A stretch of DNA of 63,556 nucleotides, filler included, from an uncultured Methanosarcinales archaeon (GTDB taxonomy: Archaea > Nanobdellota > Nanobdellia > Woesearchaeales > CAYNLP01), in assembly GCA_964398115.1 (NCBI GenBank). It is 3 parts of 3 records of this genome, joined end to end, with 100 filler letters (N's around TTAATTAATTAA, not from the genome) between each part and the next. Parts side by side here need not be neighbours in the genome. Positions count along the whole stretch, not along the records: positions 1 to 26,594 come from CAYNLP010000012.1; 2 more parts are not named here. One strand, 5' to 3'. Each line of letters opens with the position of its first letter. Position 1 is the first letter of the stretch. The translations under genes were made by a program, and so were the position numbers. The notes under the pieces were generated by a model. That model saw only the letters and a list, made by a program, of their open reading frames with translations, was not told the origin of the DNA and made no database searches. Positions 4,851-57,490 of the stretch are shown piece after piece.

Positions 4851-5351
4851 ATGACCAATTTAGCAACACGACTAAAACAAGAACAAATCATCAAAGAAAG
4901 AAAGGTGGAACTCAAACACGCTGGACAAAGCCACCTCTACGTAGACCTGAAAAAAGCATACGGCAACCCTAGTCTAAGAAAACACATAACTCAAGAACTC
5001 CACAAAAAGATACCATTAAACGTCACAACCCTAGCCGCGAGTGGACACGGTGGAATACCACTCGCAACCACCTTATCAGACCAACACGACTATAACTTAA
5101 CCTTGATAAGGGAAGAAAGAAAAGGATATGGAACAGAAAAACACATCGACGGCTACCAACCACAAAACCACGACGTCATAGCAGTAGTAGATGACGTCGT
5201 CACAACAGGAAACAGCCTCAAAAAAATAGTAGATAAGCTAGAACATACAAAAGGCAAAGTTCAAGGATGCTACGTTGTAGTCGACCGCAGCGATCAAAAA
5301 CTACCAGTCCAAGTAGAATCCCTACTAACTTTAGAAGACTTAACGGAATAA
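4851..5351 (+). CDS. pyrE: Orotate phosphoribosyltransferase-like protein
   Basis: SHLYVDLK, REERKGYGT, PRPP motif VVDDVVTTGNS. Confidence 0.8.
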   Translation: MTNLATRLKQEQIIKERKVELKHAGQSHLYVDLKKAYGNPSLRKHITQELHKKIPLNVTTLAASGHGGIPLATTLSDQHDYNLTLIREERKGYGTEKHIDGYQPQNHDVIAVVDDVVTTGNSLKKIVDKLEHTKGKVQGCYVVVDRSDQKLPVQVESLLTLEDLTE

Positions 5352-5871: not shown

Positions 5872-5891
5872 CTTCTAATTTCAGAAAAAGA

Positions 5892-6299
5892 TTATTGTTC
5901 TATCTCTACGAGGAATTTGTCTGGTTCAAGAACCTTTATTTTCACTTTTCCTTCCTTATTCCAATTTTGGGTTAAATCTTTTGGGAATCGGAAGAAATAG
6001 TTTTTACCATCATAGTTGAGACTTCTTTCTATTGTTATTTCTTTGTCTTCTAGAAGCATTTCAATTATCCAGAATTTTTCTAAACGACTTGCTTGTTCTG
6101 GATCTAAGTATTCTTCTCCGCAATTGGGGCATTCCCATACTTCATATGTGTATTCCAGTCCTTTGTATTTCCTTTTCTTTGTGGTTTTTTCCGTTTTTGT
6201 ATCGCAGCAAGTAAAGGGGCCTTCAAACGCGTTTTCATCTACTTCTAATTGTATTTCTTCATCCCGCACGTCTTCTTCTCTTATTTTGTTTTTAGTCAT
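5892..6299 (-). CDS. Putative antitoxin: YgiT/MqsA-type Zn ribbon fused to AbrB-like domain
   Basis: CC...WECPNCGEEYLDPEQ; C-terminal DGKNYFFRFPKDL; overlaps the toxin gene stop by 4 nt. Confidence 0.65.
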   Translation of the reverse strand: MTKNKIREEDVRDEEIQLEVDENAFEGPFTCCDTKTEKTTKKRKYKGLEYTYEVWECPNCGEEYLDPEQASRLEKFWIIEMLLEDKEITIERSLNYDGKNYFFRFPKDLTQNWNKEGKVKIKVLEPDKFLVEIEQ

Positions 6300-6559
6300 T
6301 TTTTCTTTTCATACAGCTTTTTCTGCCATTCAGATGAAGGATACGCTGTTATTATTTTAGCTGCTCCTTCCTTGTATTCAAATATTATGGTCAAATAACG
6401 TGGATGTTTAACTATGGCTAGGTATCTGTTATCTTTTGTTTTAGTTACGTATTTTTCTTTGTAAAGTAAGGATTTCTTTATTTCTTGTTCTTTTATTAGA
6501 TGTTTCTTGAATACTTTTTCTGCTACTTCTGTTGTAATCTTTACTTCTTTTACTTTCAA
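6296..6559 (-). CDS. Putative BrnT/DUF4258-like (RelE-fold) toxin
   Basis: 87-aa basic protein; KKH.I...EI, RYLAI...RYLTIIF...KIITAYP. Confidence 0.65.
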   Translation of the reverse strand: MKVKEVKITTEVAEKVFKKHLIKEQEIKKSLLYKEKYVTKTKDNRYLAIVKHPRYLTIIFEYKEGAAKIITAYPSSEWQKKLYEKKK

Positions 6560-6864
6560 TTAAAACCCTCATTTCGTACTATTTAACGTACGTTTTATTT
6601 ATATGTTTTTTCTTTTACGGCGCCGTAGGCGTGATTTTCGGCATCCCGCTTAGATGCATTCGAACCCGCAAGATGCAGGTTGGTGCATTTACCAGCTTTC
6701 TCATCTGGTTTTTCTCTCTTTTTTTAAGAATGATTTGAATATATAGTTCACGCGTGTGTTTGTCCAGTGCTACTTTTTCTCGTCACGAAACGTTTTCGAA
6801 TGTCCAGTGATGTGTGAGTTAAATTTAAATAAGGTGAGGAATAAACCGTAATGAGTGGGTAGCT

Positions 6865-7500
6865 ATGGCAGATCAAGACAGGTTTAACAGAGAAATGGAT
6901 GATTACATTCGTTCGCAGCGACGTAAGCAAAAACAGGCTGGTAGTGTCGACATAGCAGTTGATAAAGAAAAAGCTTCTCAAAAGAGTGGCGATATCGAAA
7001 GTGGAATGATTGTAGAGTATGATGATGGCCGTAGCTTCTGGGATAAAATAGTCGATTTCTTCCATTTTGAAGATGAAGAAGAGCAAGAACCAGTTGAGTA
7101 TCAAGAAGAACTTAGTCCGCATGAGAAGAAGAAACTGGCGGATATGGAAGAAGCTGAAGTTGACGCTCAAAACGTTGAGGATGAGTATAAAAATATTGAA
7201 GAAATGGATGAAGAGCTTGACGTGCCAGAACCAGGATTTCTCGAAAAACTTGCAAGCTTCTTAGGTTTTGGAGAAAAAGTTCCAGAAGATGACTACAAAG
7301 ATATTGAAGAGTTCAACCCAGAACAATTTGCAGAAGAAGAAAGCGAGAAGTTAATGTTTGAAGAAGATGTCAAAGAGGTTTTGAAAATCACACACAAATG
7401 GATTGAAAGACTACCGGCTAAGAAGAAGAAAGAGTTTAAAGATAGTGAAGACTTCGACAAATACAAGACCTTGTTGGACAAGATGGACTTGTTGAAATAG
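6865..7500 (+). CDS. Acidic hypothetical protein
   Basis: 211-aa ORF, TATA ~6824, twice-repeated FW/LxKIxxFF amphipathic motif. Confidence 0.7.
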   Translation: MADQDRFNREMDDYIRSQRRKQKQAGSVDIAVDKEKASQKSGDIESGMIVEYDDGRSFWDKIVDFFHFEDEEEQEPVEYQEELSPHEKKKLADMEEAEVDAQNVEDEYKNIEEMDEELDVPEPGFLEKLASFLGFGEKVPEDDYKDIEEFNPEQFAEEESEKLMFEEDVKEVLKITHKWIERLPAKKKKEFKDSEDFDKYKTLLDKMDLLK

Positions 7501-7501
7501 G

Positions 7502-8689
7502 TTAAGTCTTTATTTCTATGACTGAATTGTCTTCTACAGTTTTATCTTTCGCGATTGGTTTTTTCGTTTTCATATCTATCGCTTTCTTGAAATTATCTCC
7601 AATGTCTGAGTGTATTTGATAAGCAAAGTCTAACGTGGTCGCCTCATTTGGTAGGAGTACTGCGTCAGGCAACACGTTGCCATCCTTGTCTGTCAAGTCA
7701 GAATTCGCCACAGGGTAAGCGACTTTGTAATCTAGGGTTTCAAAAACGGCTTTGTTCAAAACCTTTTGAGCTCCCGTTCCATTGTTTTCTTTGAGAATTT
7801 CTTTCATAAACTCTAGTCCTTTCTTTTGCTGTTCCGATAATTTGTCTTCTTCTAATATTTCGAAAGCGTCTTCTCCTGGCGTGTAATTGATTAATCCTTT
7901 CTCGTCCGCTTCTCGCAGGGCAAGTTCTGTCTCAGCACTCATAGGTATGAACTCGTATTCAGAGAATTCTTCTCTTAATTTTTCCAAGCTTTGTCTTGCT
8001 CCTTCCACATCTATCTTGTTGGCGGCAATTATCATCGGCTTGCTTTTCATCCTCAACTTTTTAGCCAGTTTTAGCGTTTGTTCTTCACTCCAGTTGGTAA
8101 TGTCTTCTGACAAGTCAAGTTCTTTCAAGGCTTGTTCGGTCATTTCTTCAGTCACCCTAACGCCGCTCATGTGTTCAGCAATCGCTTTACTGAGTTGCTG
8201 GCTTTCGGCTTTCATCTTCCTAACAAACTTATCCCAGCCGTCTTCTAGTATGTCATGATACCAATGATCGAGTTCTATCTCCATATAGCGGATGTCTTGA
8301 CTAGGGTCGTAACTGCCAGGATCAACCGGCTCCCCCTTTTCATTCGTACTACCACTAACGTCTATCATGTGGATTAAAACATCTGCTTGGTTTAAGTCAT
8401 TTAGAAATTCAGAACCCATGCCTTTTCCTTTATGAGCCCCTGGTACTAGGCCTGCAACGTCTATCAAATTGACAGGGATGAACCTTTCACCATTGACACA
8501 CTTGCCTTCTCTAGGCTCGCATTCTACGTTGAATTCTTGCTCTGGACAAGGGTGTTTAACAAATGCTACGCCTTGATTTGGATCTATCGTGGTAAAGGGA
8601 TAGTTGCCCATGTCTATATCTGCTAAGGTCATTGCTTTGAAAAAAGTGCTTTTTCCCACGTTGGCTTTTCCCCAAACTCCTACCTTCAT
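7502..8689 (-). CDS. ychF: YchF/OLA1-family (Obg-like) ATPase with TGS domain
   Basis: GKANVGKST, YPFTTIDPN, DVAGLVPGA, NKID; start taken at MKVGVWG. Confidence 0.92.
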   Translation of the reverse strand: MKVGVWGKANVGKSTFFKAMTLADIDMGNYPFTTIDPNQGVAFVKHPCPEQEFNVECEPREGKCVNGERFIPVNLIDVAGLVPGAHKGKGMGSEFLNDLNQADVLIHMIDVSGSTNEKGEPVDPGSYDPSQDIRYMEIELDHWYHDILEDGWDKFVRKMKAESQQLSKAIAEHMSGVRVTEEMTEQALKELDLSEDITNWSEEQTLKLAKKLRMKSKPMIIAANKIDVEGARQSLEKLREEFSEYEFIPMSAETELALREADEKGLINYTPGEDAFEILEEDKLSEQQKKGLEFMKEILKENNGTGAQKVLNKAVFETLDYKVAYPVANSDLTDKDGNVLPDAVLLPNEATTLDFAYQIHSDIGDNFKKAIDMKTKKPIAKDKTVEDNSVIEIKT

Positions 8690-8803
8690 TTTTTTATTCA
8701 AAAGATGAGTCTGTTTTTAACGTTTTGTCGAAAACATTTATTATCTATATTGAAAAGAAATAAAGAATAAAAGGAACAACAATTTCTCTCCTTTTGATGA
8801 CAA

Positions 8804-8875
8804 GCGCCTGTGATCTAGCGGCGAGGATCATGCCTTCCCAAGGCATGTGCCCGGGTTCAAATCCCGGCAGGCGCA
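8804..8875 (+). tRNA. tRNA-Gly(CCC)
   Basis: GCGCCTG/CAGGCGC-A; ATGCC-TT-CCC-AA-GGCAT; GGTTCAAATCC. Confidence 0.95.
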
Positions 8876-8879
8876 TATC

Positions 8880-9020
8880 ATGAGCGAAGTTAAAGAAGTA
8901 GAATTTGAATGCGAAAATTGTGGCAAGAAAGTCAAGGCGTACAAGCACGAAGATGTAGAGTTTAACATGCTATGTCAACAATGCGGGATGGACGTTCAAA
9001 CAAGTGATGCTAGAAATTAA
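8880..9020 (+). CDS. 46-aa zinc-finger microprotein (absent from ORF track)
   Basis: MSEVKEVEFECENCGKKVKAYKHEDVEFNMLCQQCGMDVQTSDARN; two CxxCG motifs. Confidence 0.7.
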   Translation: MSEVKEVEFECENCGKKVKAYKHEDVEFNMLCQQCGMDVQTSDARN

Positions 9021-9393
9021 TACGTTAATGTTTTGATTTCTTCTATATCTTTGAAATGTTTGTTGTTAGAAGAAACTATCTTGTCTGTGTTGTTGGTAAG
9101 GTAAGTACCTGCTATTATACTGTCCGGTTGTGGAATGTTGTCACCTGTTTTTTCCCTTCCCTATAGATTTCTGAACTTTTCAAAGTTGCATTTCTATCCA
9201 GGTTGAAAGTTTCAAACCTTGATATGAAAGCTAGGAAGGTTTCTTTTTCTTCTTCGGTGAGGTTTCCGCAAAGGAATTCAAATATTACTGGTTCGCAAAT
9301 TTTTATTTGTTCTTTGTTTTCTTTCATGAACTTGAGGGCTTCTTCTTTTTCATCTAAGAAGTCGATGAGAAAGCTGGTGTCTGCACCTATCAT
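9017..9393 (-). pseudogene. vapC: VapC PIN-domain toxin, frameshifted at an A6 run (9148-9153)
   Basis: MIGADTSFLID...EFLCG; the -1 frame continues TGDNIPQPDSIIAGTYL...VSSNNKHFKDIEEIKTLTY* with the C-terminal PIN motifs. Confidence 0.75.
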
Positions 9394-11850: not shown

Positions 11851-13056
11851 ATGGGAGAGGATTGGGTTCAAAAGTACCAGCCGAAAAGCGTGAATGAAAT
11901 ACAAGGCCAAAACAAACCAGTTGGACAGTTGAAAAACCATGTTGAAAAGCATGAGAAAGGCAGCAAACCAGTGTTGCTTCACGGGCCACCAGGTACGGGA
12001 AAGACTAGCGCGGTTTACGCAATCGCTGGCGACTTAAACCTGGAGGTTGTAGAAGTCAACGCTTCTGACGTGAGAAACAAGCAAAGCATTAAAGACGTCG
12101 TTGGCGGCGCGTTGGAACAACAAAGCTTATTCAGTCAAGGAAAAATAATACTAGTTGATGAAATCGACGGACTTAGCGGAAATCAAGACCGAGGAGGAAT
12201 TCAAGCTTTGACAAAGTTAATGAAAAACAGCAGCTATCCTATCATCTTCACCGCGAATGACCCATATGATCAAAAATTCTCCAAACTACGAAGGAAGTGT
12301 CGTATGATTCAATTCGGCAATTTAAACTATAGGAGTGTAGCGGCTAGGTTGAAAGACGTGATGAAAGCCGAAGGAATAGAATGGGAAGAAAACGCTTTGA
12401 AAAAACTAGCAAGGAGAGCAGACGGGGACATGAGGGGTGCTATCAACGACTTACAAACCATTGCTGGAGATGGTGAATTAACAGAAGAAGACTTGGAAGT
12501 TTTAGGTGTGAGGCAAAGAAAGGACAGCATTTTCGACGCTTTAAAGAGAGTTTTCAAAACAACAAATGCAGACGTTGCAAGAGGTGCTTATGACGAAATT
12601 GCAGAGGACTTAGATGAAATATTCTTGTGGTTGGAGAAAAACATTCCAAAAGAGTATAAGAAGCCAAAAGATTTAGCGAGGGCGTATGATGCGTTATCTA
12701 TCGCCGACGTTTTTTACGGCAGGATTCAAAGATGGCAACATTACCGCTTCTACGTATACTGCTATGACTTACTAAGTGCAGGTATAGCATTAGCGAAAGA
12801 TGAAAAATATGGAGGTTGGACGAAGTATCAGAGGAGTCAAAAACCGTTGAAGATTTGGCGTGCCAATAATAAGTTGAAGAAGAAAAAAGACATCGCTCAC
12901 AAAGTTGCAACAAAAACTCATACTTCAATTAGTAGAGCGATGCAAGATACAATCCCTTTCTTTAAGTTACCGTTTAATAAGAATGAAAGTTTTGCTACAG
13001 ACATTACAGGTTTCTTTGACTTAAGTGATGACGAAGTTGACTGGATGAAAGAATAA
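11851..13056 (+). CDS. rfcL: Replication factor C large subunit
   Basis: WVQKYQPKS, GPPGTGKTS, EVNASDVR, DEIDG, GDMRGAINDLQ. Confidence 0.93.
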   Translation: MGEDWVQKYQPKSVNEIQGQNKPVGQLKNHVEKHEKGSKPVLLHGPPGTGKTSAVYAIAGDLNLEVVEVNASDVRNKQSIKDVVGGALEQQSLFSQGKIILVDEIDGLSGNQDRGGIQALTKLMKNSSYPIIFTANDPYDQKFSKLRRKCRMIQFGNLNYRSVAARLKDVMKAEGIEWEENALKKLARRADGDMRGAINDLQTIAGDGELTEEDLEVLGVRQRKDSIFDALKRVFKTTNADVARGAYDEIAEDLDEIFLWLEKNIPKEYKKPKDLARAYDALSIADVFYGRIQRWQHYRFYVYCYDLLSAGIALAKDEKYGGWTKYQRSQKPLKIWRANNKLKKKKDIAHKVATKTHTSISRAMQDTIPFFKLPFNKNESFATDITGFFDLSDDEVDWMKE

Positions 13057-17833: not shown

Positions 17834-20119
17834 ATGGCACTTTTCAGTAAGGAAACTACAGGTTCTTATGAAGTAATTCGTGAAGGCGGGGATAACATCC
17901 TGAAGATTAACTACGAGGACGAACCTAAAGTTCCAAGTATAGAAGACGACCCTGCAACTATGGCGCGTGTTATCGACTTATTGATTGAAAACCCTGATAC
18001 TACTAAAGTTGTCTTCACACAAAAAAGAGAATATGAGTATGATTACAGCCAAACACAACTTCTTAATGAAATAGCGGATTTGTATAAAAAACTGGTTAGG
18101 AATAAGGAATTATTCCAGTATAGCGAAATTGCAAGTGTAGGTAACCAGCAGCAAGCAGACAAGATTTATAGCGAAATCCAGCAGATAGTGTTTCAAAAGT
18201 TGAAATCTGACCCGGTAGGTTGTTATGTAGAGTTGAAACGTTTAGAAAGGCGTGAAAGGATTGAATTGGATAAAAGCGTGGGTGAAGAACAAGCCCTGCA
18301 CAAAGGCTATCATAGACTCTTACAATACTTGCTGAACGAAATGGAGAACACTAAGTTGATAACAGTAGCTGAGCCATACCTCGCTGGTCATCACGTAGGA
18401 GACAGAGAAGTTTATCGGAAAATCTTCGCTCCAAATATCAAACCAGACTTTATGTTCACCAAGTTGATGTCTCAATTTCCTAAAAGAGCTACCGAACTTG
18501 ACAGCTATAACATAGATGACACCGAGGTCAGCATTTTTGAGTTAGAAGATGACGTTCAGTACTTGTATCACGTGACACCACCAGAGTTTAAACTCACACA
18601 AGAAAAATATGAAATTTTGGACATGGCTAGGAATATAATGGCGGAGCATAAGCCTAGCCGGCAAGAGTTTGTCGATCCCCATCGTATGAGGCAAGTTTTC
18701 AGAAATGTTGGTGAAGACCTACTTGAGGAACTAGGTAATTACAAAGGCGTTGATTTCTCCACGGAAGAGGTTGAAGAGTTATGTGATATCTTGATCAGGT
18801 ACACTGTAGGGTTTGGCTTGGTGGAAGTTTTGTTGTCAGATCAAAAAATTCAGGATATCACTGTAAACAGTCCTACTGGTAAGATACCAATGTTTGTTGT
18901 TCACCAAGATTATGGAGAATGTAAAACAAACATTATCCCTAGTGTGAGTGACGCTGAGAGTTGGGCGACAAAGCTACGGATGATTAGTGGTCGTCCTTTA
19001 GATGAAGCTAACCCTATACTTGATACAGGTATTGAAATTCCTAACGTGGCTAAAGCTCGTGTGGGAGTGATAACGGAGCCTTTGAATCCTCAAGGACAGG
19101 CTTATGCTTTCAGAAGACATAGGGATCATCCTTGGACCCTCCCCTTGTTTATTAGGAATAAAATGGTTTCCCCCATGGCCGCGGGTCTCTTAAGTTTCTT
19201 GGTAGACGGCAATCGAACCATGCTAATTGCGGGTACTCGTAGTGCTGGAAAGACAAGCTTACTTGGTAGTTTGTTGGTGGAGATTATGAGGAAGTACAGG
19301 ATTATCACGATTGAGGATACTATGGAGCTTCCTACGAATAGTTTGAGAAAATTGGGTTATAACATTCAACCTATGAAAGTCGCTGGTGCTTTGAGTACGG
19401 ATACTAGTGAGGTTAGTGCAAGCCAGGGTATAAGGACGACTTTGCGTATGGGAGATAGTGCTTTGATTGTAGGCGAAGTTAGAAGTGAAGAGGCTCAGGC
19501 TTTGTATGAAGCTATGCGTGTTGGCGCTCAAGCAAACGTTGTTGCGGGTACTATCCACGGTGAAAGTCCTTACGGAGTTTTTGACCGTGTTGTTAATGAC
19601 TTAGGTGTTCCACGGACGAGTTTTAAAGCGACTGACATCATCATAGTGGCTAATCCGATTAAGAGCCCTGATGGTTTGCATAGTTGGAGGCGTGTCACGC
19701 GTATTACAGAGGTTAGGAAGGATTGGGATGAGGACCCGAGTGATGAGAATGGTTTTGTGGATTTGATGAAGTATAATCCTGAAACGGATCAGTTGGAACC
19801 GACTGATGCTTTGTTGAATGGTGATAGCGACGTTTTGAAGGACATCGCTGCTAACGTGCGGGAGTGGGCTGGTGATTGGGATGCTGTTTTGGAGAATATT
19901 GATTTAAGGAGTAGGATTAAGGAAAGGTTGGTTGAAGTGGCTGATGAATATAATGATGGTGACATGTTGGAGGCTGAGTTTGTAATAAATGCTAATGATA
20001 AATTTCATAAGATTAGTGATAGGGTTAAGGAGAAGACTGGTGAGTTGGATAGTGACCGTATTTTCTTTGAGTGGAATGAGTGGTTGAAGCGTCAAGTGAG
20101 GAAGCGAAATGCTGATTAA
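17834..20119 (+). CDS. Type II/IV secretion (VirB11/TadA/FlaI-like) ATPase with long N-terminal domain
   Basis: Walker A GTRSAGKTS, Asp box TIEDTMEL, Walker B LIVGEVR, GTIHG. Confidence 0.9.
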   Translation: MALFSKETTGSYEVIREGGDNILKINYEDEPKVPSIEDDPATMARVIDLLIENPDTTKVVFTQKREYEYDYSQTQLLNEIADLYKKLVRNKELFQYSEIASVGNQQQADKIYSEIQQIVFQKLKSDPVGCYVELKRLERRERIELDKSVGEEQALHKGYHRLLQYLLNEMENTKLITVAEPYLAGHHVGDREVYRKIFAPNIKPDFMFTKLMSQFPKRATELDSYNIDDTEVSIFELEDDVQYLYHVTPPEFKLTQEKYEILDMARNIMAEHKPSRQEFVDPHRMRQVFRNVGEDLLEELGNYKGVDFSTEEVEELCDILIRYTVGFGLVEVLLSDQKIQDITVNSPTGKIPMFVVHQDYGECKTNIIPSVSDAESWATKLRMISGRPLDEANPILDTGIEIPNVAKARVGVITEPLNPQGQAYAFRRHRDHPWTLPLFIRNKMVSPMAAGLLSFLVDGNRTMLIAGTRSAGKTSLLGSLLVEIMRKYRIITIEDTMELPTNSLRKLGYNIQPMKVAGALSTDTSEVSASQGIRTTLRMGDSALIVGEVRSEEAQALYEAMRVGAQANVVAGTIHGESPYGVFDRVVNDLGVPRTSFKATDIIIVANPIKSPDGLHSWRRVTRITEVRKDWDEDPSDENGFVDLMKYNPETDQLEPTDALLNGDSDVLKDIAANVREWAGDWDAVLENIDLRSRIKERLVEVADEYNDGDMLEAEFVINANDKFHKISDRVKEKTGELDSDRIFFEWNEWLKRQVRKRNAD

Positions 20120-20134
20120 AAGAGGTGGGATTTT

Positions 20135-22366
20135 TTGTCGGAGGATATTGAAGATTTCAAGTCTAAGTATTTGAAACGTTTAAATCAAGAACTTGGTGAA
20201 AGTCCTGAAGACATTTCTGAGGTTACAACTCAACAGTATCGTGAGTTCAGGCAGGAGTACATGCCTAAGCCTTTGAGTTGGTATGAGAAAGTTTGTCAAA
20301 TTTCTGGTAGTATCTTACAGGTTAGTCCTGATGAAGAAGATGCGGAGGAGATGAAGGAAGCGATTGACATCACTCATTTGAATATTACGCCTACGGATGC
20401 GATGAGTTTTGCTATTTTAGGTCCGTTATTGTTTATAGTGGTGGCTTCACTTTTTGGTTATATACTTCCGCCTTTGCTTACGCCGGAGCAGGCTAGTGGA
20501 AGTATTTTCATGGTTTTGTTTGCAATGATTTCTGGGATGGTAATGATTTATCCGTTGCAGAAGATGCCTCAGTTTTTGAGTAATAGTTGGCGTATGAAGG
20601 CTAGTAATCAAATGGTGTTGTGCGTTTTTTACGTCGTTACTTTTATGAGGCATACGAGTAATTTGGAGTTAGCTATTGATTTTGCTGCAAAGCATTTGGA
20701 TCCGCCTTTGAGTTTGGATTTAAAGAAGATAATTTGGGATATTGAAACAGGTAAGCATGATAGTTTGAAGGAGAGCTTGGACAGTTATTTGGAGAATTGG
20801 AGGGATTGGAATAAAGAGTTTATTGAAAGCATGCATTTGATTGAGTCTAGCTTGTATGAAACGAGTGAGAATCGTAGGATCGACACGTTGGATAAAGCGT
20901 TGGATATCATGTTGCAGGAGACTTATGAGAAGATGTTGCATTACGCTCATAATTTGAAGAGTCCTTTGCAGGCTTTGCACATGCTTGGTATTGTTTTGCC
21001 TATACTGGGATTGGTTATATTGCCTTTGATTGTTAGCTTTATGGGAGGGGTTCACTGGTATCATATTATGATTTTGTATAACGTGGCGTTGCCTATTGGA
21101 GTTTTTTACATGGGGAAGAATATTTTGAGTAAGCGCCCTACTGGTTATGGAGAGACTCAACTCACCGGTGTGGATGAGCAAGAGTATAAAAAGGTTAGTT
21201 TTAACTTTTTAGGGAGTGAAGTAAGTTTTAGTCCGGCTTGGTTTGCTATTTTGATTTTTTCGACATTATTGTTGATTGGAAGTTTTCCACTTGTCATGCA
21301 TAGTATGAATCCTGGTTTTGATTACGTCTTTACAAGTAGTGGAGTCTCTACTATAAGTGATTATACAAGTGAAGACGCGGTTTTTTACTTCTTAGGATAT
21401 AGGCCTATGATTCAAGATGGTGAAACCACAGATGTTTTCATTGGCCCTTTCGGCTTAGGAGCTACTCTCTTGAGCTTGTTAATACCGTTGGCTTTTGGAT
21501 TGGGAATTGGCTTGTATTATAAGTTGAAGACTAAAGATTTGATAGAAATACGTGAGAAGGCTAAGGAATTGGAGGAGGAATTTGCGGGGGCTTTGTTCCA
21601 ACTTGGTAATCGTTTGGCTGATGGTATTCCTGCGGAGATTGCTTTTGAAAAAGTGGCGAATGTTATGCAGGAAACCACGTCTGGTAAGTTTTTTGAACTG
21701 GTTAGTGTGAATATTCGAAAGTTGGGGATGGGTTTGAAAAAAGCTATTTTCGATCCTGACAAGGGTGCTTTGGCGTATTATCCTAGTGATTTGATTGAGA
21801 GTAGTATGAAAGTTTTGGTAGAGGCGGTGAATAAAGGGCCGAGGGTGGCTAGTCAGGCTTTGATGAATGTTTCTGAATATATCAAGCAGATGCATCGTGT
21901 TGATGAAAGACTTCGTGACTTGATGGCGGATGTTATTAGTGATATGCAAAGCCAGATTAGTTTTTTGACTCCGGCTATTGCTGGTATAGTAGTTGGGATT
22001 ACGAGTATGATCACTAAAATCTTGGGTAGCTTGGGTGAGAATATTAGTCAGTTGCAGACTGAAACTGCTCAAAGTGCTGGTGGCACGGCTGGTTTTGGTG
22101 GGCAGTTGTTGAACTTGTTCGGTACAGGAATGCCTACTTATTGGTTCCAGATCATTGTGGGTTTGTATGTGGTACAGGTTGTTTACATCTTGACGGTGTT
22201 GGTGAATGGGATTAAGAATGGTCAGGATAAGGTTATGGAGAAGAGTTTGCTTGGTAAGTATTTGACGAGGACTACTTTGACTTATTGCCTCATTGCAGGA
22301 GTTGTTATGACTTTGTTCAACGTCATCGCGGGTACTATTGTGCCGACGGCTGGTGTTGGGGGTTAA
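20135..22366 (+). CDS. Fused TadB/TadC (GspF/FlaJ-like) membrane platform protein
   Basis: 743 aa, two GspF-like cytoplasmic domains (LEEEFAGALFQLGNRL.DG.P.E), many TMs; follows the ATPase. Confidence 0.8.
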   Translation: MSEDIEDFKSKYLKRLNQELGESPEDISEVTTQQYREFRQEYMPKPLSWYEKVCQISGSILQVSPDEEDAEEMKEAIDITHLNITPTDAMSFAILGPLLFIVVASLFGYILPPLLTPEQASGSIFMVLFAMISGMVMIYPLQKMPQFLSNSWRMKASNQMVLCVFYVVTFMRHTSNLELAIDFAAKHLDPPLSLDLKKIIWDIETGKHDSLKESLDSYLENWRDWNKEFIESMHLIESSLYETSENRRIDTLDKALDIMLQETYEKMLHYAHNLKSPLQALHMLGIVLPILGLVILPLIVSFMGGVHWYHIMILYNVALPIGVFYMGKNILSKRPTGYGETQLTGVDEQEYKKVSFNFLGSEVSFSPAWFAILIFSTLLLIGSFPLVMHSMNPGFDYVFTSSGVSTISDYTSEDAVFYFLGYRPMIQDGETTDVFIGPFGLGATLLSLLIPLAFGLGIGLYYKLKTKDLIEIREKAKELEEEFAGALFQLGNRLADGIPAEIAFEKVANVMQETTSGKFFELVSVNIRKLGMGLKKAIFDPDKGALAYYPSDLIESSMKVLVEAVNKGPRVASQALMNVSEYIKQMHRVDERLRDLMADVISDMQSQISFLTPAIAGIVVGITSMITKILGSLGENISQLQTETAQSAGGTAGFGGQLLNLFGTGMPTYWFQIIVGLYVVQVVYILTVLVNGIKNGQDKVMEKSLLGKYLTRTTLTYCLIAGVVMTLFNVIAGTIVPTAGVGG

Positions 22367-23655
22367 GTTCTATGGGTGTAGTGTTGTAATGACTTTCGGA
22401 CTTCGTCGCTTTCTCTTATTTTTTTGAATCCTCTATTTCTGAGTTGTCGTATTCTTTCTCTTGTAACTCCCATTATGCTTCCGATTTGTTCGAGGGTTAG
22501 TTCTTCTTGTCCGTCTAGTCCGTAGTAGAGTTCCATTATTTGCCTTTCTCTGTCGCTCAATAGGGAGAGTGCTTTTTGGATTTGTTCTCTTCTGTCTCTT
22601 TCTTCTGCTTTTTCGTGCACGGTTGGTTCTTCTAACGCTAGTGTTTCGCTGACTTCGGTGTCTCCGTCTTCTTTGTATCTTGGACTGTCCAAGCTTATTT
22701 CTCCAAATGCGATGCGACTGAAGTCTTTGTAGATGTCTACGCTTATATTCGCGCCTGTTTCTTCTATCGCTTCTCTTATTTGTTTATCTGTTGGTCTTCC
22801 ACTCATACGGCTGTTTAAGTATTTTCTTACTGCTTTACCTCCGTTCCAAACGTTCTGTGGTATGTTCACTTGTTTGCTTGTTCGTGCTAGGGTGGTGTGT
22901 ATGTTTTGCCTGATCCACCAGACTGCGTAGCTGATGAATTTCACTCCTCTGTCAGGGTTGAATTTCTTTGCTGCTTCTACGAGTCCTTTGTTGCCGAGGC
23001 TGATGAGTTCTTCGTAGTTTAATCCTTCTCCTCTGTATTTCTTGACGTAACTCGCTACAAATTTCAGGTTTGCCGTGACGAGTTTTTCTAGTGCTTTTTC
23101 GTCGTCTTCGTTTTGGATTCTTCTGCCCAGTCTTTGTTCTTCTTCTCTACTTAAGGGTTCGCTTTCTGTGATTGAGCTGAAGTAGGTTTCTACTGGATCT
23201 TCGTTGTATTCAGTATTAGCTATGAATTCTGGTCTTCTTTCTCTTTCTACTTGTTCTACTTCTTTTTCTAACTCGCTTTCTTCCGCCGTTTCTCGTCTTT
23301 CTACTAGGTGGTGAATGTCCGAACTGCTTACGTATAAGTCTCTTGCACCGCCGTTGCTTTTTTCTTTTACTAGTCTTCTTCCGTCTATGCTTGCTTTCCA
23401 GATTTGTGATAGTTCTTTTTCTGCAAATTTTGCGAACAGTACTGCGGGGGTATAACTATTTTGGGCTTTTTCTTCTGGTATTTGTCCTTGTCTGTGGAGA
23501 TGGTTTATGACCAGGCCGCCGAAGAATCCTTGATTGGTTACTTTGTACGGGTCGTTTTTAATACTTTGTAGTGTTTCTTCGTCTAGTCCTTTTTGTTGTA
23601 GTTCTTTTTCTGTATAGGTACTTGCTGGATCTAGGTCATCGATTATTTCTTCCAT
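22363..23655 (-). CDS. Bacterial-type sigma70-family (RpoD/RpoS-like) factor with ~150-aa N-terminal extension
   Basis: Region 1.2 VETYF...PLSREEEQRL; region 2 LVTANLKFV...GNKGLVEAAKKFNPDRGVKFISYAVWWIRQ; region 3 ISLDSP; region 4 LSDRERQIMELYYGL...TLEQIG...GVTRERIRQ. Confidence 0.93.
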   Translation of the reverse strand: MEEIIDDLDPASTYTEKELQQKGLDEETLQSIKNDPYKVTNQGFFGGLVINHLHRQGQIPEEKAQNSYTPAVLFAKFAEKELSQIWKASIDGRRLVKEKSNGGARDLYVSSSDIHHLVERRETAEESELEKEVEQVERERRPEFIANTEYNEDPVETYFSSITESEPLSREEEQRLGRRIQNEDDEKALEKLVTANLKFVASYVKKYRGEGLNYEELISLGNKGLVEAAKKFNPDRGVKFISYAVWWIRQNIHTTLARTSKQVNIPQNVWNGGKAVRKYLNSRMSGRPTDKQIREAIEETGANISVDIYKDFSRIAFGEISLDSPRYKEDGDTEVSETLALEEPTVHEKAEERDRREQIQKALSLLSDRERQIMELYYGLDGQEELTLEQIGSIMGVTRERIRQLRNRGFKKIRESDEVRKSLQHYTHRT

Positions 23656-23659
23656 TTTT

Positions 23660-25603
23660 TTAGATGTTCCCTCGGTAGTGTTGTAATGCGTTTATAAAGT
23701 CGCCGTAGTGGAATTTCATCCCGCCGTCTAACATGGTGTTTATATTTATACCATGGTTGTCTGAATAGTCTACTATTTCTATTGCTTGTTCAGTTGATAA
23801 TCCTAACCTGTCTTTCATGTCTGGTAGGGTGTAGTGCCTTGTTCTGAAATGCTTCCAGTTTTCTTCTGTTTGAGATATTCGTCTACCATCGAAATTATCT
23901 GAGAGTATGAAGTTTGTTACTTCTAAACTGCATGTTCCTTCGATGAAATAACATGGTCTTTTTGGAGTGTGTAGGTTTCTAACAAAGGGTTTGTATGAGT
24001 TGTTTTGTTTTGAAAGTACGTTTGCTACTTGTTTGGTTTTTCTAAAGAGGGTTTCATCTTCTATTTCGGGATGTTGTCCTAATGCGTGATGGAGACTTGG
24101 CATTCCAGTTGTTTGTTCTTGTACTCTTTGGAATTCGTGGCCGGTTACTTTGTCGTTTTCGTCTGATTCTAGCATTCCTGTTCTTATTAAGTAATTTAGT
24201 GTTCCTCTTTTTTTCCCGGTTTTACTTGCGAGGTCTCCTGATGTGTATTTCACGTTGGGGAATAAGGGCATTTTTTCTTGCGTGTTGGCTTCTTTCTTTT
24301 CTTTGATTGCTTGCCAGATTTTGTTGGTTTCTTGTTCTAATTCGCTTGGTGTTGGGTTTTCTAGTCGGTGTTGTGCTATTGCTCTTGCGGCCATGTTTAA
24401 GACTTGCATTTCGTAGTGGCTTTTTCTAAAACCTGACATGTGTTGTAGGCTAGGATGATGTGGGTTGATGATTATCGTGTCTTCGTCATGGTTGAAAGTG
24501 CTGTTTTGTTCTAGGTTTTCGTCGTATCTTATTTCGGTTTGCATGTGTACTTCATCTATTGGACTTCCTCGTAGTTTCTTCTGTGCTTGTTTTGGGACGT
24601 CGCTTTTCTGACTTTGGAATTTTTGTGTTTTCCTCACTTTCTTCCGGGTCTTGGCGTATTTTCTTACTCTTTGCATGCTACTTCGTAGTTCTGCTCTGAA
24701 TTCTTGCACTCCGGGGTGGTCGGGTTGGAATTGGCTTCTGTCGAATGCGATGGCTTCTTCTAAGTCGTCAGCATGTAATATGCCTATAATTCTTGCCCGG
24801 TCGGTTTTTGGTACGTCTTCTAACATTTTTTTGGGATCCCCGACTCTTCTGCCGTGTACGTATACGTGGATTCCTCTCATGTCTGCTGGGCTGTTAGCGT
24901 AGTAGAGGCTTCCGTGAACGTGTCCCATTTCGTTTCCGGTTCGGTCGAATTCGAATTCGGTGGCTTTTTCTATACTTTTGCTTTGTACTTTTTCTCCGTT
25001 TACGTAGACTTCGAAGTCAGGTAGTATGGGGAGTTCCCATCTAATCCTTCTTCTTAGTTCTTTGAGTTTGAATCCTGTGTCAGGTCCGAACCTTAGGCGG
25101 GTCATTTCTATTTGTGTACCGCTTTCTTCACTTGTGGGTTGGGTTTGTATTTCTATTTCTTTCCCTGTTCGTAGCATGTCTTCGTTGAATTCTTCTTCTA
25201 CTATGCTTTCTAAGCCGTCTTTTCTTGTGGTGAGTTTGTAGGCGTCGCTTAATGCTTTGATTAGGATGGTTCCTATTCCTCGGTCTCCCAGCTTTCTTCT
25301 GTTTAGCTCGGGTGTGTATTTTTCTTCTAGTTTTGGACTGTCTCCTAGTTTGTAGAAAGCGTTTTCTAGTTCGGTTGGTGTCATGCCGAGGCCGTTGTCT
25401 TCTACTACTAAGAGGTCGTTTTCTTCATTGTATTGTAGGTGTACTTGTGTGGCGTCGGCGTCGTAAGAATTGGCTATGAGTTCGATTATACTGGTTTCTG
25501 TATCTTGCTTGGTGAGGTTTGCGAGCATTTCGGGGAGGTTTTTCCCTGGTGCTCTTCTCACAACTTGTGTTTCTTCGGTTTCTTGTGTGGTTCCCCCAAC
25601 CAT
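23660..25603 (-). CDS. GHKL (MORC-like, HATPase_c_3) ATPase with S5-like middle domain and C-terminal putative winged-helix repeats
   Basis: ELIANSYDADA (N box), VEDNGLGM (G1), GDRGIG (G2), SGTQIEM; IIINPHHP. Confidence 0.85.
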   Translation of the reverse strand: MVGGTTQETEETQVVRRAPGKNLPEMLANLTKQDTETSIIELIANSYDADATQVHLQYNEENDLLVVEDNGLGMTPTELENAFYKLGDSPKLEEKYTPELNRRKLGDRGIGTILIKALSDAYKLTTRKDGLESIVEEEFNEDMLRTGKEIEIQTQPTSEESGTQIEMTRLRFGPDTGFKLKELRRRIRWELPILPDFEVYVNGEKVQSKSIEKATEFEFDRTGNEMGHVHGSLYYANSPADMRGIHVYVHGRRVGDPKKMLEDVPKTDRARIIGILHADDLEEAIAFDRSQFQPDHPGVQEFRAELRSSMQRVRKYAKTRKKVRKTQKFQSQKSDVPKQAQKKLRGSPIDEVHMQTEIRYDENLEQNSTFNHDEDTIIINPHHPSLQHMSGFRKSHYEMQVLNMAARAIAQHRLENPTPSELEQETNKIWQAIKEKKEANTQEKMPLFPNVKYTSGDLASKTGKKRGTLNYLIRTGMLESDENDKVTGHEFQRVQEQTTGMPSLHHALGQHPEIEDETLFRKTKQVANVLSKQNNSYKPFVRNLHTPKRPCYFIEGTCSLEVTNFILSDNFDGRRISQTEENWKHFRTRHYTLPDMKDRLGLSTEQAIEIVDYSDNHGININTMLDGGMKFHYGDFINALQHYRGNI

Positions 25604-25628: not shown

Positions 25629-25636
25629 TATTTAAA
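25629..25636 (-). promoter_or_regulatory. Archaeal TATA box for the GHKL-sigma operon
   Basis: TTTAAATA 25 nt upstream of the ATG at 25603, typical of near-leaderless archaeal transcripts. Confidence 0.55.
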
Positions 25637-25723
25637 TCCTGTGTTTTGTTTTCATTCTAGGAAAGTAACAAGTTAGGTTTTTTGGATAGTTTTTTATATA
25701 AGGTTTTGCAGATGTTTGTTTTA

Positions 25724-26521
25724 ATGGTTGATGCGAAGCAGTATTTGAAAACTTTCCGTAGGGTTTTACCTCGGCGTATTCGTAAGTTGAGAAAGTTGGC
25801 TAGGGAGAAGCGAAAGTTGGATGACAAGCTTCGTGCTGGTGCTTATAATGATTCTGTTATTGAGCGTTTGAAGGAAATTATTGGTGAGGATAAAAAGTTG
25901 TTAGTTTTTGGTAAGAGTGCTGAGAAGCGTCATCAGACTACTTTGCGTCATAGTGCTTGGAAGATATTGGAGAGCATTCGTAAGTTTAGGCAGTATTGTG
26001 ATAACAAAACTTTAGGTGAGGATATCGTTCATATTGAGGATGAAAACTTGCGTCGGAAGACTAGGAAAGTTACTGATAGTATGAAGGCGTGGTTGCAAGA
26101 GGTTTACAACTTTTGTGAAGAATTAGATGAAGTTTTTAAGGAAGAGGTTGATCACTTGGATAATGGTAGGTTGAAGGAGTATCTCGAGGCGAGTAACAAG
26201 GAGAAGAAGATCTTGTCAGATCCTAATTTCAAGTCTGACGTGGATAATATGAAAGGAGCGGTTAAGCGTGGTGTGAAGTTGTTGGGTGAGATGGAGGATA
26301 ACCATCCTTATGTTGCGAGTTTGGTTTTAATTCTGGCTACTGTTCATGTTTTGAGTTATGGCTTATTGATTATTGGCAGTGATATTGCAATGCCTGCCTA
26401 TCTAAGTAGCTTTTTAGGTTTGGTTGCTTCTAAAATTCCTGTAGAGTTTGACATGGAAGCGGAGGATTTTTTGGAGCAATTAACTAGTGTAGCGGTTGAT
26501 GTTCAAGAACAAATGGTATGA
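25724..26521 (+). CDS. Helical/coiled-coil protein with C-terminal hydrophobic hairpin
   Basis: Likely start MVDAKQY about 23 nt after TTTATATA; basic N-terminus; two adjacent hydrophobic helices near the C-terminus. Confidence 0.65.
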   Translation: MVDAKQYLKTFRRVLPRRIRKLRKLAREKRKLDDKLRAGAYNDSVIERLKEIIGEDKKLLVFGKSAEKRHQTTLRHSAWKILESIRKFRQYCDNKTLGEDIVHIEDENLRRKTRKVTDSMKAWLQEVYNFCEELDEVFKEEVDHLDNGRLKEYLEASNKEKKILSDPNFKSDVDNMKGAVKRGVKLLGEMEDNHPYVASLVLILATVHVLSYGLLIIGSDIAMPAYLSSFLGLVASKIPVEFDMEAEDFLEQLTSVAVDVQEQMV

Positions 26522-26522
26522 G

Positions 26523-26594
26523 TGGGCTTGCCCGGATTTGAACCGGGGACACCTGCGTCTTCAGCGCAGTGCTCTCCCGCTGAGCTACAAGCCC
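26523..26594 (-). tRNA. tRNA-Phe(GAA)
   Basis: Reverse strand GGGCTTG...CTGCG-CT-GAA-GA-CGCAG...GGTTCAAATCC...CAAGCCC-A; contig ends at its 5' base. Confidence 0.95.
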
Positions 26595-26694
26595 NNNNNN
26601 NNNNNNNNNNNNNNNNNNNNNNNNNNNNNNNNNNNNNNTTAATTAATTAANNNNNNNNNNNNNNNNNNNNNNNNNNNNNNNNNNNNNNNNNNNN
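26595..26694. other. Artificial contig linker
   Basis: N-run / TTAATTAATTAA (stops in all six frames) / N-run. Confidence 0.95.
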
Positions 26695-52074: not shown

Positions 52075-52547
52075 ATGCAAACTAAAAACAAAGTCAAATT
52101 ATACGATTGTCCAGAATGTGGAGGTAACAGCCTCAAAATCACAGAAGATAGCGGCGAAGTCATATGCATAGATTGCGGACTCGTCGTTGAAGAAGACATG
52201 GTAGACTTCGACAAAGAATGGAGAGAAATTGAAGACGAAGCAGAAAAACGCAGAAGAACAGGTGCACCTCTAACATACACACATGCAGACAGAGGACTAG
52301 GCACTGAAGTAGGTGACAAGTCAGATCTCTACCAAATGAGCAAGAAAGACAAGAATAAGTTCTTTAGACTTAGAAAATGGCAGAGAAACGTAGCTTCAGC
52401 CATAGAGAGAAACTTACAACTAGCCTTGACAGAAATCCAAAGGTTAGTCTCTGTACTAAACCTAAGTTCAGTAGTAGAAGAAGAAGCGGCAAAGCTCTAC
52501 ACCATGGCAGCTCAAAAAGGACTAGTCAAAGGAAGAAGCACAGAAAA
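52075..52547 (+). CDS. tfb: Transcription initiation factor IIB, truncated by contig end
   Basis: CPECG...GEVICIDCGLV, EWR...RTGAP, RLRKWQ, ERNL. Confidence 0.95.
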
Positions 52548-52647
52548 NNNNNNNNNNNNNNNNNNNNNNNNNNNNNNNNNNNNNNNNNNNNTTAATTAAT
52601 TAANNNNNNNNNNNNNNNNNNNNNNNNNNNNNNNNNNNNNNNNNNNN
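52548..52647. other. Artificial contig linker
   Basis: N-run / TTAATTAATTAA / N-run. Confidence 0.95.
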
Positions 52648-57481: not shown

Positions 57482-57490
57482 GTTCTTCTC

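Follow-up and report, generated by a model that had tools for sequence, protein, structure and literature searches.

Why DPANN archaea, which possess TBP, TFB and an archaeal RNA polymerase, keep genes of bacterial-type sigma-70 factors has been a puzzle since 2021 (Castelle et al. 2021, PMC8204110, in its accessible text). We have analysed a stretch of DNA of 63,556 nucleotides (hereafter the window) from an uncultured archaeon placed in the Woesearchaeales (NCBI GenBank assembly GCA_964398115.1), where a first-pass annotation had noticed a sigma70 gene directly behind the gene of a MORC-like GHKL ATPase and had suggested a new two-gene system. This pair gives a handle on the puzzle. Judged from gene order, domain content and relatives in other genomes, the two genes very probably constitute a real and conserved sigma-ATPase module in Woesearchaeota-type archaea. 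In addition, the downstream gene does not encode a plain sigma70, as had been supposed, but a fusion of a sigma module to an N-terminal domain (NTD) which the first-pass annotation had missed. For the role of the module, we put forward a tentative mechanism and weigh it against five alternatives.

The gene pair and its counterparts in other genomes

Both open reading frames (ORFs) lie where they had first been annotated, with the 4-nt spacing, on a gap-free stretch and with the local base composition. The features of the pair are the following, with the evidence in brackets:

23660..25603, minus strand: gene 1, a 647-aa paraMORC-like GHKL ATPase with an HATPase_c_3 domain (ORF and Pfam)
24569..25507, minus strand: N-terminal half of the ATPase, residues ~33-345, with the Bergerat-fold ATP-binding domain and the expected S5-like transducer region (alignments)
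23663..24568, minus strand: C-terminal half of the ATPase, residues ~346-647, family-specific (alignment)
22363..23655, minus strand: gene 2, a 430-aa fusion of the NTD, an acidic linker and a complete RpoD-like sigma module (ORF, Pfam, alignments and AlphaFold2)
23251..23655, minus strand: NTD, residues 1-135 of the sigma protein, compact alpha/beta (profile search and AlphaFold2 model)
23098..23199, minus strand: sigma region 1.2, residues 153-186 (Pfam Sigma70_r1_2, 32.6 bits, cut-off 22)
22876..23082, minus strand: sigma region 2, residues 192-260, including YAVWWIRQ (Pfam r2, 54.7 bits, cut-off 24)
22621..22869, minus strand: sigma region 3, residues ~263-345, diverged (alignments; helical in the model)
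22411..22572, minus strand: sigma region 4, residues 362-415, including VTRERIRQ (Pfam r4, 58.7 bits, cut-off 24.1)
23656..23659, minus strand: 4-nt spacer from the GHKL stop to the sigma start, TAA-aaaa-ATG (sequence)
25629..25636, minus strand: TATA-box-like element TTTAAATA, ~30 nt upstream of the GHKL ATG (sequence)

The ATPase family alignment (A1, 15 members) was scanned against one genome per species, which gave 79 loci. Four of them are from Woesearchaeota and have long matches (L001-L004), one is from Bathyarchaeota, and in the other 74, which are bacterial, only the N-terminal part is matched. Just 1 nt separates the ATPase gene of L001 (5556-7481) from a downstream gene of 343 aa with sigma domains; in L002 the ATPase gene (6037-7938) is followed by a sigma-domain gene of 402 aa, and here the two ORFs overlap by 17 nt. 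Both downstream proteins have in common with the window sigma protein a non-sigma N-terminal domain of ~135 residues. When a hidden Markov model (HMM) of this NTD was run over the 4487 ORFs of the 79 loci and the window, only three ORFs matched, namely those of the window, L001 and L002, while none was found in the 75 loci outside Woesearchaeota. Each of these NTD genes immediately follows, in the same orientation, one of the three GHKL genes with the highest scores (836-878 bits).

L001 and L002 are on independent Woesearchaeota records of 21.9 kb and 228.6 kb, so the pair does occur in other archaeal genomes. The same order, GHKL and then sigma, is kept between unrelated flanks, which bears out the suggestion of a two-gene system. 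Actually, BLAST finds no further gene common to the window between 13.3 and 31.1 kb and L001-L004. The archaeal sigma genes thereby obtain their first consistent partner: a MORC-like ATPase adjoins them in 3/3 loci with the closest GHKL genes. In the window, the 4-nt spacer probably reflects an operon with coupled translation. The archaeal TATA box claimed by the first-pass annotation is present as TTTAAATA, in AT-rich DNA; as the promoter of the GHKL-sigma operon it is a candidate only.

The pair is also at home in its surroundings. Both genes lie in a block free of N between 13313 and 26594, as the N-runs listed across the window delimit it. The GC content of the pair is 0.41 and that of the flanks 0.39-0.42, and in codon usage each of the two genes stands at a distance of 0.30 from the other window genes, where the values span 0.106-0.424 (29 window genes, the pair included). 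That is, composition and codon usage are native, inside the range of the window. The window holds archaeal markers, i.e., Rpb7, a proteasome subunit, RFC, an archaeal CCA-adding enzyme, FttA-KH, PAC2 and S24e, and most of them are separated from the gene pair by N-runs. The tfb gene which had been noticed in the window is there as well, as the N-terminal part of TFB at 52075-52599, cut by a gap. This gap is the second of two identical N patterns (44 N, 12 bases, 44 N), which are located at 26595-26694 and 52548-52647. In the protein database, both proteins of the pair are assigned to one contig of 26,594 bases, a length that coincides with the start of the first pattern. Positions 1-26594 are thus probably a single contig, and the later parts may be further contigs of this genome bin, so that tfb need not share a contig with the pair. 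No nuclease or DNA methylase is found among the window neighbours scanned (Pfam, PADLOC and phage-family scans), in agreement with the first-pass annotation.

Several observations concern the neighbourhood. At the 3' ends of both genes we have seen a 19-nt direct repeat (22378-22396 and 23675-23693, 89% identity), and an LQHY motif stands near the end of both the sigma and the GHKL protein, which could be chance or a small duplication. A tRNA-Phe(GAA) gene is located at 26522-26594 on the minus strand, 0.9 kb from the GHKL start, and ends exactly at the first 44-N run. Between them, a 279-aa ORF without family match (25682-26521) diverges from the GHKL gene and reaches the 3' end of the tRNA. 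On the other side lies a type IV pilus/archaellum-like locus (17834-22366) with a 761-aa T2SSE ATPase and a 743-aa polytopic membrane protein, whose gene ends 4 nt inside the 3' end of the sigma gene; a second, separate locus of this type (55641-58975) comprises a 494-aa T2SSE and two T2SSF proteins.

The related loci have peculiarities of their own. Dinucleotide tracts are known from slipped-strand phase variation of bacterial defence and surface genes, and one such tract, a perfect (GA)19.5, follows a TATA-like TTTTATAT at 5912-5965 of L002, either just before the GHKL gene or within its 5' end; it is seen in L002 only. In L001, a class I methyltransferase gene (8511-9179, minus strand; Methyltransf_24; phrog_2675 'DNA methyltransferase', 45.5 bits) points towards the sigma gene, the end of which it overlaps. 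Because it is present in the L001 locus only, it is not part of the conserved module. In L003, a convergent ECF-type sigma gene without the NTD adjoins the GHKL gene with 0-nt spacing (5878-8085), and is a third sigma class adjoining this ATPase family. A tRNA-like sequence of 96 nt with an anticodon of four bases was also called in this locus (3884-3979), possibly an intron-containing archaeal tRNA.

The constant core and the exchangeable sigma module

The claim of a MORC-like ATPase has held up well. HATPase_c_3 is found at residues 36-157 (57.9 bits, cut-off 25), the Pfam matches of the protein being PF13589 and PF02518 and no others. The domain is detected in all 15 family members, and ten ATP-binding residues are invariant in 15/15 (E41, N45, D48, D50, D69, G71, G73, G106, G109 and T112). 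The best PDB sequence matches are MORC2 and MutL (E ~3e-7), which cover the ATP-binding region only (profile positions ~25-105). By these motifs and matches, the ATPase is MORC/paraMORC-like with an intact ATP-binding site. There are 14 full-length relatives at 28-41% identity, and the two that are named among the 16 closest matches (P0127 and P0133) are both 'Candidatus Woesearchaeota archaeon'; it is from such named relatives that the assignment of the window to Woesearchaeota derives in this analysis. Phage and plasmid relatives, one of which is annotated ParaMORC3, align to residues ~22-348 at 23-26% identity (tblastn), and phrog_6203 aligns to residues 35-332. An S5 fold would be expected behind the GHKL domain, where homology to the phage and plasmid relatives and to phrog_6203 runs to residues ~332-348.

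The bacterial, phage and plasmid relatives share the N-terminal half only. For the C-terminal half there is no Pfam family, and a language-model atlas search with it gave no usable match. Its invariant residues in the 15 members are Y453, G488, G500, L504, P539 and F540, and no nuclease-like constellation of acidic, His and Lys residues is found among the conserved positions of the alignment. Weak matches to HTH_17 (3/15 members) and to S4 (4/15) suggest that it possibly holds helix-turn-helix (HTH)-like segments.

The other constant element is the NTD. A word-index search with it returned the query alone, and the family was recovered by profile search: among 1.84 billion representatives, 37 proteins match at E<=0.001 and 24 at 1e-10. 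In every match the NTD is at the N-terminus, and most of these proteins are 340-430 aa long. In the AlphaFold2 model of the 430-aa protein, the mean pLDDT is 83.8, and residues ~10-125 of the NTD reach 90-96. The N-terminus is acidic, with no obvious signal sequence by eye. The mean pairwise identity of the NTD is 29%, compared with 27.5% and 23.9% for the sigma regions; the NTD is at least as conserved as they are. It has no Pfam match, no atlas match and no match in 50,697 phage records, and a fold search of the NTD-sigma model against the PDB and viral libraries returned sigma factors only and nothing for the NTD. A by-eye motif had suggested kinship of the NTD with C-terminal segments of the ATPase, which was ruled out by hhalign (probability 0.7%). 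Overall, these searches indicate that the NTD is a lineage-specific domain and the constant part of a family of partner proteins.

Pfam sigma domains are found in 26/37 NTD proteins (E<=0.01), and the family sigma HMM matches 27/37, 25 of the 27 being rows on which this HMM was trained; four of the remaining representatives are fragments. At least one well-populated class of the DPANN sigmas consists of fusions to a lineage-specific domain. We have also observed NTD proteins of another kind (P0196 with 892 aa, P0200, P0206, P0211, P0213 and P0216), whose C-terminal regions have neither a sigma nor a Pfam match. From these sequences, their existence suggests that the NTD may be a general adaptor with alternative payloads.

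The sigma module itself had been described as a complete sigma70. This holds for regions 1.2, 2 and 4, which are above the Pfam cut-offs. Region 3 is not called by Pfam (no Sigma70_r3 at E<=0.01), yet it is spanned by alignments and is helical in the model: the NCBIfam RpoD_Cterm alignment pairs residues 189-427 with positions 2-237 of 238 in the model, and the solved SigA chain 8x6f_E aligns to residues 152-418. The protein scores 114.8 bits against the TIGR02937 superfamily (cut-off 42.9), and stays below the equivalog cut-offs of primary sigmas (PRK09210, 158.9 vs 572; RpoD_Cterm, 157.8 vs 354; Sig70-cyanoRpoD, 160 vs 384.5). Of 8000 candidate relatives scored, 7611 are at E<=0.001. Among the best 120 of these 7611, the closest bacterial ones are short RpoD/SigA-like proteins, many of them from Gemmatimonadota, with 43-50% identity over 52-66% of the query, so near-identical bacterial genes are not seen there. 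The best sigma match by bits, P0002, was considered as a family member and rejected, being bacterial-type, with region 2 duplicated and no NTD.

Within the NTD family, the sigma module does not stay the same. For the window protein and P0185, which share 35% identity from end to end, the best NCBIfam matches are RpoD, RpoS or MzaA, whereas those of P0183, P0189 and P0198 are FliA and WhiG. We have built a tree of 43 sigma modules, leaving out P0002 for its duplicated region 2 and the ECF protein of L003, of which region 4 alone was recovered. In this tree, 19 NTD rows group with E. coli FliA across a split of 100/98, while the window protein and P0185 fall inside a clade of RpoD, RpoS and Gemmatimonadota-type sequences (100/99), the window protein standing beside bacterial sequences (92/93). 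A single clade for the 26 NTD-linked modules is rejected by the approximately unbiased (AU) test (delta lnL 60.8, p=0.00093); for both the tree and the test, the bacterial sampling is thin and several branches are long. On this phylogenetic evidence, the sigma module is exchanged between classes, RpoD-like in the window and FliA-like in most others.

The ATPase behaves differently. In a quick-search tree of the GHKL and S5 part (ORFs of at least 90 bits, L010 left out), 18/18 family rows lie on one side of a 98% branch, with 27 bacterial rows on the other. The ATPases of the window, L001 and L002 fall in one clade of 10 rows (96%), though their partners carry three different types of sigma module. 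Since the ATPase forms one clade while the sigma modules are mixed, we take the ATPase and the NTD as the stable core and the sigma module as the exchangeable part.

The residues which read promoters have been compared after alignment of the sigma modules to E. coli RpoD, RpoS and FliA. At Y430, W433, W434, R436, Q437, R584, E585, R586 and R588 of E. coli RpoD, the window protein carries the identical residue. Of these positions, we take 430, 433, 434 and 436 to serve melting and the -10 element, 437 the -12 position, and 584, 585, 586 and 588 the -35 element. At 425 it has V and at 440 H, as in the bacterial relative P0004, and P0019 likewise has V at 425. On the FliA side, the own residues of E. 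coli FliA are kept in 13/19 members for GLD and in 12/19 for ESRS. An intermediate group (P0181, P0186, P0187, P0194 and P0209) has lost the WW pair and kept RE(R/M)R. In the core-binding columns 402-409 of RpoD, EESLN stands against LDQEN (402, 403, 406 and 407 differ), and the bacterial relatives differ there too. Judging from these alignments, both sigma classes have preserved the residues by which the -10 and -35 elements are read.

Two further observations concern the sigma proteins and their potential sites. Most FliA-like and intermediate members have a conserved tail, F.RTR.Y.G...V..L.L (P0181-P0214, columns ~495-540 of alignment A4), which is absent from the window protein and P0185 and could be a second contact to the ATPase. 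The best sigma-70-type site of the block (ATGACA-17-TATAAT, 11/12) is at 25821-25849 on the plus strand, inside the 279-aa ORF, ~220 nt from the GHKL start and directed away from GHKL. In L001, the sigma-28 consensus is matched with 1 mismatch at 5285-5311 (plus) and 12050-12076 (minus), where 0.04 matches are expected and 0/200 shuffles reach 2. One of these sites is intergenic, ~245 nt upstream of the GHKL-sigma operon. Both were noticed post hoc, and they do not fit the idea of cognate sites, because the sigma of L001 is not FliA-like.

A tentative mechanism and its rivals

The bacterial relatives of the ATPase give a first hint at its role. PADLOC matches lie near 8/12 of the closest bacterial GHKL loci, in a scan of 67/136 neighbour ORFs (the longer, non-nested ones) and 6 ATPase ORFs. 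Examples are a C5-methylase with Vsr in L027, a methylase with a type III restriction-modification (R-M) system in L016, and a ThsA/LmuA-like protein in L009, others being weaker. Such R-M and defence contexts match those in the accessible text of the paraMORC literature (PMC2292703). In the gammaproteobacterial locus L008 (5743-8335), GHKL is followed by a 288-aa protein with a borderline Sigma70_r4-like HTH (24.0 bits, cut-off 24.1) and a TrmB-like winged helix. From this sequence, HTH partners of this ATPase lineage may be older than the archaeal sigma fusion.

We propose that the NTD would dock the sigma protein onto the MORC-like ATPase. The sigma module, with no bacterial RNA polymerase at hand, would then read promoter-like duplex or locally melted -10-type DNA, and ATP-driven dimerisation or clamping of the ATPase would compact or silence the DNA thus selected, or pass it on to other factors. 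In primary sigmas, region 1.1 hinders DNA binding by the free factor; here this region would be replaced by the NTD. The most likely role would be in genome conflict, i.e., to recognise and neutralise foreign, bacterial-type or mobile DNA, because R-M and defence islands are where the bacterial relatives of the ATPase are found. An alternative role would be the regulation of particular host loci. A precedent for the archaeal pairing is known from bacteria, where MzaA, of the sigma family, accompanies MzaB, an ATPase of the MutL type, in a defence system that has been validated. The proposal takes up one of two readings of the first-pass annotation, in which sigma is a DNA-reading subunit of the ATPase; this part would fit the conserved promoter residues and the constant NTD. 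Overall, we regard it as a serious possibility rather than a probability that the sigma module reads DNA while the NTD links it to the MORC-like ATPase, with a role in genome conflict or silencing.

It is tempting to go further. A DPANN clade might read bacterial-type promoters by polymerase-free sigma modules, and so silence or exclude incoming bacterial or mobile DNA; the sigma class would then be swapped to change the target, among RpoD-type, FliA-type and perhaps ECF-type. This broader claim is unlikely as it stands. If it is true that the sigma module works without bacterial polymerase, this would be a new use for a much-studied protein family.

A number of points weigh against the proposal. 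The linkage counts three loci. Of the more distant family members, L003 breaks the pattern with a truncated GHKL protein of 463 aa lacking the C-terminal half, and L004 has a GHKL variant of 764 aa with no sigma neighbour. Among the 37 NTD proteins, six of full length show no sigma module detectable by the family sigma HMM. The 13.3-kb block shows no excess of sigma-70-type consensus sites (24 vs 24.9 +/- 5.1 expected), nor do L001 or L002 show one of sigma-28-type sites (<=3 mismatches). A sigma factor that is free of core polymerase binds to promoter DNA only poorly. In addition, no effector has been identified in the pair or among the neighbours scanned, and PADLOC shows no defence-island context among the neighbours scanned around the window pair; the C-terminal half of the ATPase may contain a cryptic effector domain of unassigned fold.

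Among the alternatives, sigma could first of all be a real transcription regulator of the archaeon, docking for example on the clamp coiled-coil of the archaeal RNA polymerase, with the GHKL protein as its ATP-dependent, anti-sigma-like holder. The conserved determinants of regions 2 and 4 would then indicate selection on sigma-like functions, and with TFB and RNA polymerase subunit E/Rpb7 present the host machinery is ordinary. Castelle et al. 2021 identified no anti-sigma or controlling factor for DPANN sigmas in the accessible text (PMC8204110), a gap which a dedicated GHKL neighbour would fill, and GHKL-family kinases, SpoIIAB and RsbW, do partner sigma factors according to the accessible part of PMC13373217. 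On the other hand, the ATPase here is a 647-aa MutL/MORC-type protein and not a small kinase, and no STAS protein is found among the neighbours. The swapping between RpoD-like and FliA-like modules is hard to square with a co-evolved polymerase interface, and the core-binding columns 402, 403, 406 and 407 have changed, though they have in the bacterial relatives too. Moreover, we know of no archaeal polymerase that uses a sigma. We consider this alternative rather unlikely.

The exchange of sigma classes can also be seen as the sensor turnover of conflict systems. In that case sigma would serve as bait for a viral or plasmid factor, one that is anti-sigma-like or hijacks the polymerase, and the capture of this factor would switch on the ATPase. 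The defence and R-M neighbourhoods of the bacterial relatives (8/12 loci) agree with such a sensor or decoy, and so does MzaA, a sigma-family protein of a defence system described as validated in the accessible sources. However, no nuclease or toxin effector has been found in or beside the pair, and the conserved DNA-contacting residues would suit DNA reading better than bait. To our knowledge, archaeal viruses do not target bacterial-type sigmas. A sensor or decoy is therefore quite improbable.

A third explanation is that the pair is a neutral relic of horizontal transfer, or belongs to a provirus or mobile element without cell function. It is prompted by the rpoS annotation of two genes from DPANN viruses, of which one belongs to a prophage (PMC12647753, accessible part), and by the tRNA-Phe gene 0.9 kb from the GHKL start. 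Both ORFs are intact, however, and motif and contact residues are kept across the family at 20-35% identity, with ameliorated codon usage. A tRNA-integrated island has been rejected, since the block contains no tRNA-Phe repeat and the surroundings of the pair in L001, L002 and L004 are free of tRNA genes. A provirus context has been rejected likewise, as the 23 neighbours in the window, L001 and L002 include no viral hallmark (no capsid, portal, terminase or integrase). A relic or provirus gene is very unlikely.

In the second reading of the first-pass annotation, sigma would serve as effector or decoy against the RNA polymerase of a bacterial host or prey, to which a bacterial neighbour may be added. 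The sigma module does look fully competent for bacterial polymerase, and it seems to have been renewed repeatedly from bacterial sources. We have found no evidence for this reading: no signal sequence is evident by eye at the acidic N-terminus, the gene is coupled, probably translationally, to a cytoplasmic-type ATPase, and no secretion gene is common to the window, L001 and L002. In addition, the known DPANN hosts are archaea (PMC8204110, accessible text). An inter-domain effector is highly improbable.

Finally, a bacterial fragment joined to archaeal DNA by assembly or binning, for which one may argue that N-runs separate the pair from the strongest archaeal markers of the window, is so unlikely as to be practically dismissed, given that there is no N between 13313 and 26594, that composition and codon usage are native, that the best bacterial sigma is 50% identical over about half of the protein (best 120 of 7611), that the named members of the ATPase family are Woesearchaeota only, that the pair recurs in two independent Woesearchaeota records, and that mis-binning of DPANN sigmas was excluded by Castelle et al. 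(PMC8204110, accessible text).

Comparison with known systems

A sigma-70 in a Woesearchaeota genome is not new in itself; its novelty was overestimated in the first-pass annotation. Already in 2021, the sigma-70 genes of DPANN (fam00359, module_15) were reported to be 'particularly prevalent in Woesearchaeota', with mis-binning excluded and the mechanism left open (Castelle et al. 2021, PMC8204110, accessible text). These are bacterial-type sigma-70 proteins in DPANN like ours, and they were treated there as stand-alone factors. The NTD, the GHKL neighbour and the exchange of sigma class are not described in the accessible parts of that paper (PMC8204110); the word 'ATPase' is absent from its main text, and the sole HATPase_c_3 family in the accessible supplement is canonical MutL. 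A paper of 2025 describes two rpoS-annotated genes from DPANN viruses, one of which is part of a prophage (PMC12647753, accessible part). In the literature searched, with subscription journals and bioRxiv supplements outside the search, we have found no description of a sigma-GHKL pairing in archaea; the ATPase linkage, the lineage-specific NTD and the sigma class-swapping were likewise not found in print there.

GHKL proteins that are encoded with a sigma factor are known in bacteria. SpoIIAB and RsbW share this with the archaeal pair, and they also act on the sigma (PMC13373217, accessible part). They are small HATPase_c_2-type kinases with STAS antagonists, whereas the archaeal protein has 647 aa and HATPase_c_3, and neither Pfam nor PADLOC finds a STAS protein among the window neighbours.

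With MORC and paraMORC proteins, the archaeal ATPase shares the N-terminal GHKL part with intact motifs, followed by more conserved sequence and a family-specific C-terminal extension. The operon partners of bacterial paraMORC are nucleases, SF2 helicases and methylases (Iyer, Abhiman and Aravind 2008, PMC2292703, accessible text), while the partner of the archaeal ATPase is a sigma-containing protein. The word 'sigma' occurs 0 times in Iyer et al. 2008 (PMC2292703), and 0 times in a 2026 Tiamat/GHL survey.

A further parallel is Mza, a bacterial system that was reportedly first described by Gao et al. in 2020 and that the first-pass annotation had left out. In mzaABCDE, 'mzaA (a sigma factor)' is named in the accessible part of PMC9523054; the system is active against T4, with the MzaD nuclease assayed (bioRxiv 2022.06.16.496414, accessible part), and is listed among defence systems (PMC13223576, accessible part). 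In both Mza and the archaeal pair, a sigma-family protein is encoded beside a GHKL ATPase, MzaB being of the MutL type, and MzaA, like the archaeal fusion, has a long non-sigma N-terminal part and sigma regions r2-r4 at the C-terminus. Actually, MzaA is the top NCBIfam match and the only PADLOC match of the window sigma. In NCBIfam, it reaches 167.3 bits against a cut-off of 800 and aligns model positions 473-715 of 726; in PADLOC, it reaches 106 bits over positions 429-659 of 683. The NCBIfam score is no better than those of ordinary RpoD, RpoS and RpoH models. For MzaB, the window ATPase scores 28.5 bits against a cut-off of 850, at residues 34-107 only (NCBIfam), and 21.5 bits in PADLOC. 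MzaC, MzaD and MzaE have no PADLOC match better than E=0.008 in the 4 window neighbours, and none in Pfam. Membership in Mza has been rejected accordingly, since the MzaA match comes from nothing more than the generic sigma module and every score falls far short of its cut-off.

Mza also differs in its architecture: the gene order is reversed, the N-terminal part is unrelated, the host is bacterial, and MzaC, MzaD and MzaE stand alongside. What the comparison does offer is a common setting, in which the oddity of archaeal sigma genes is linked both to the biology of MORC and paraMORC proteins and to the unexplained sigma subunit of the Mza defence system.

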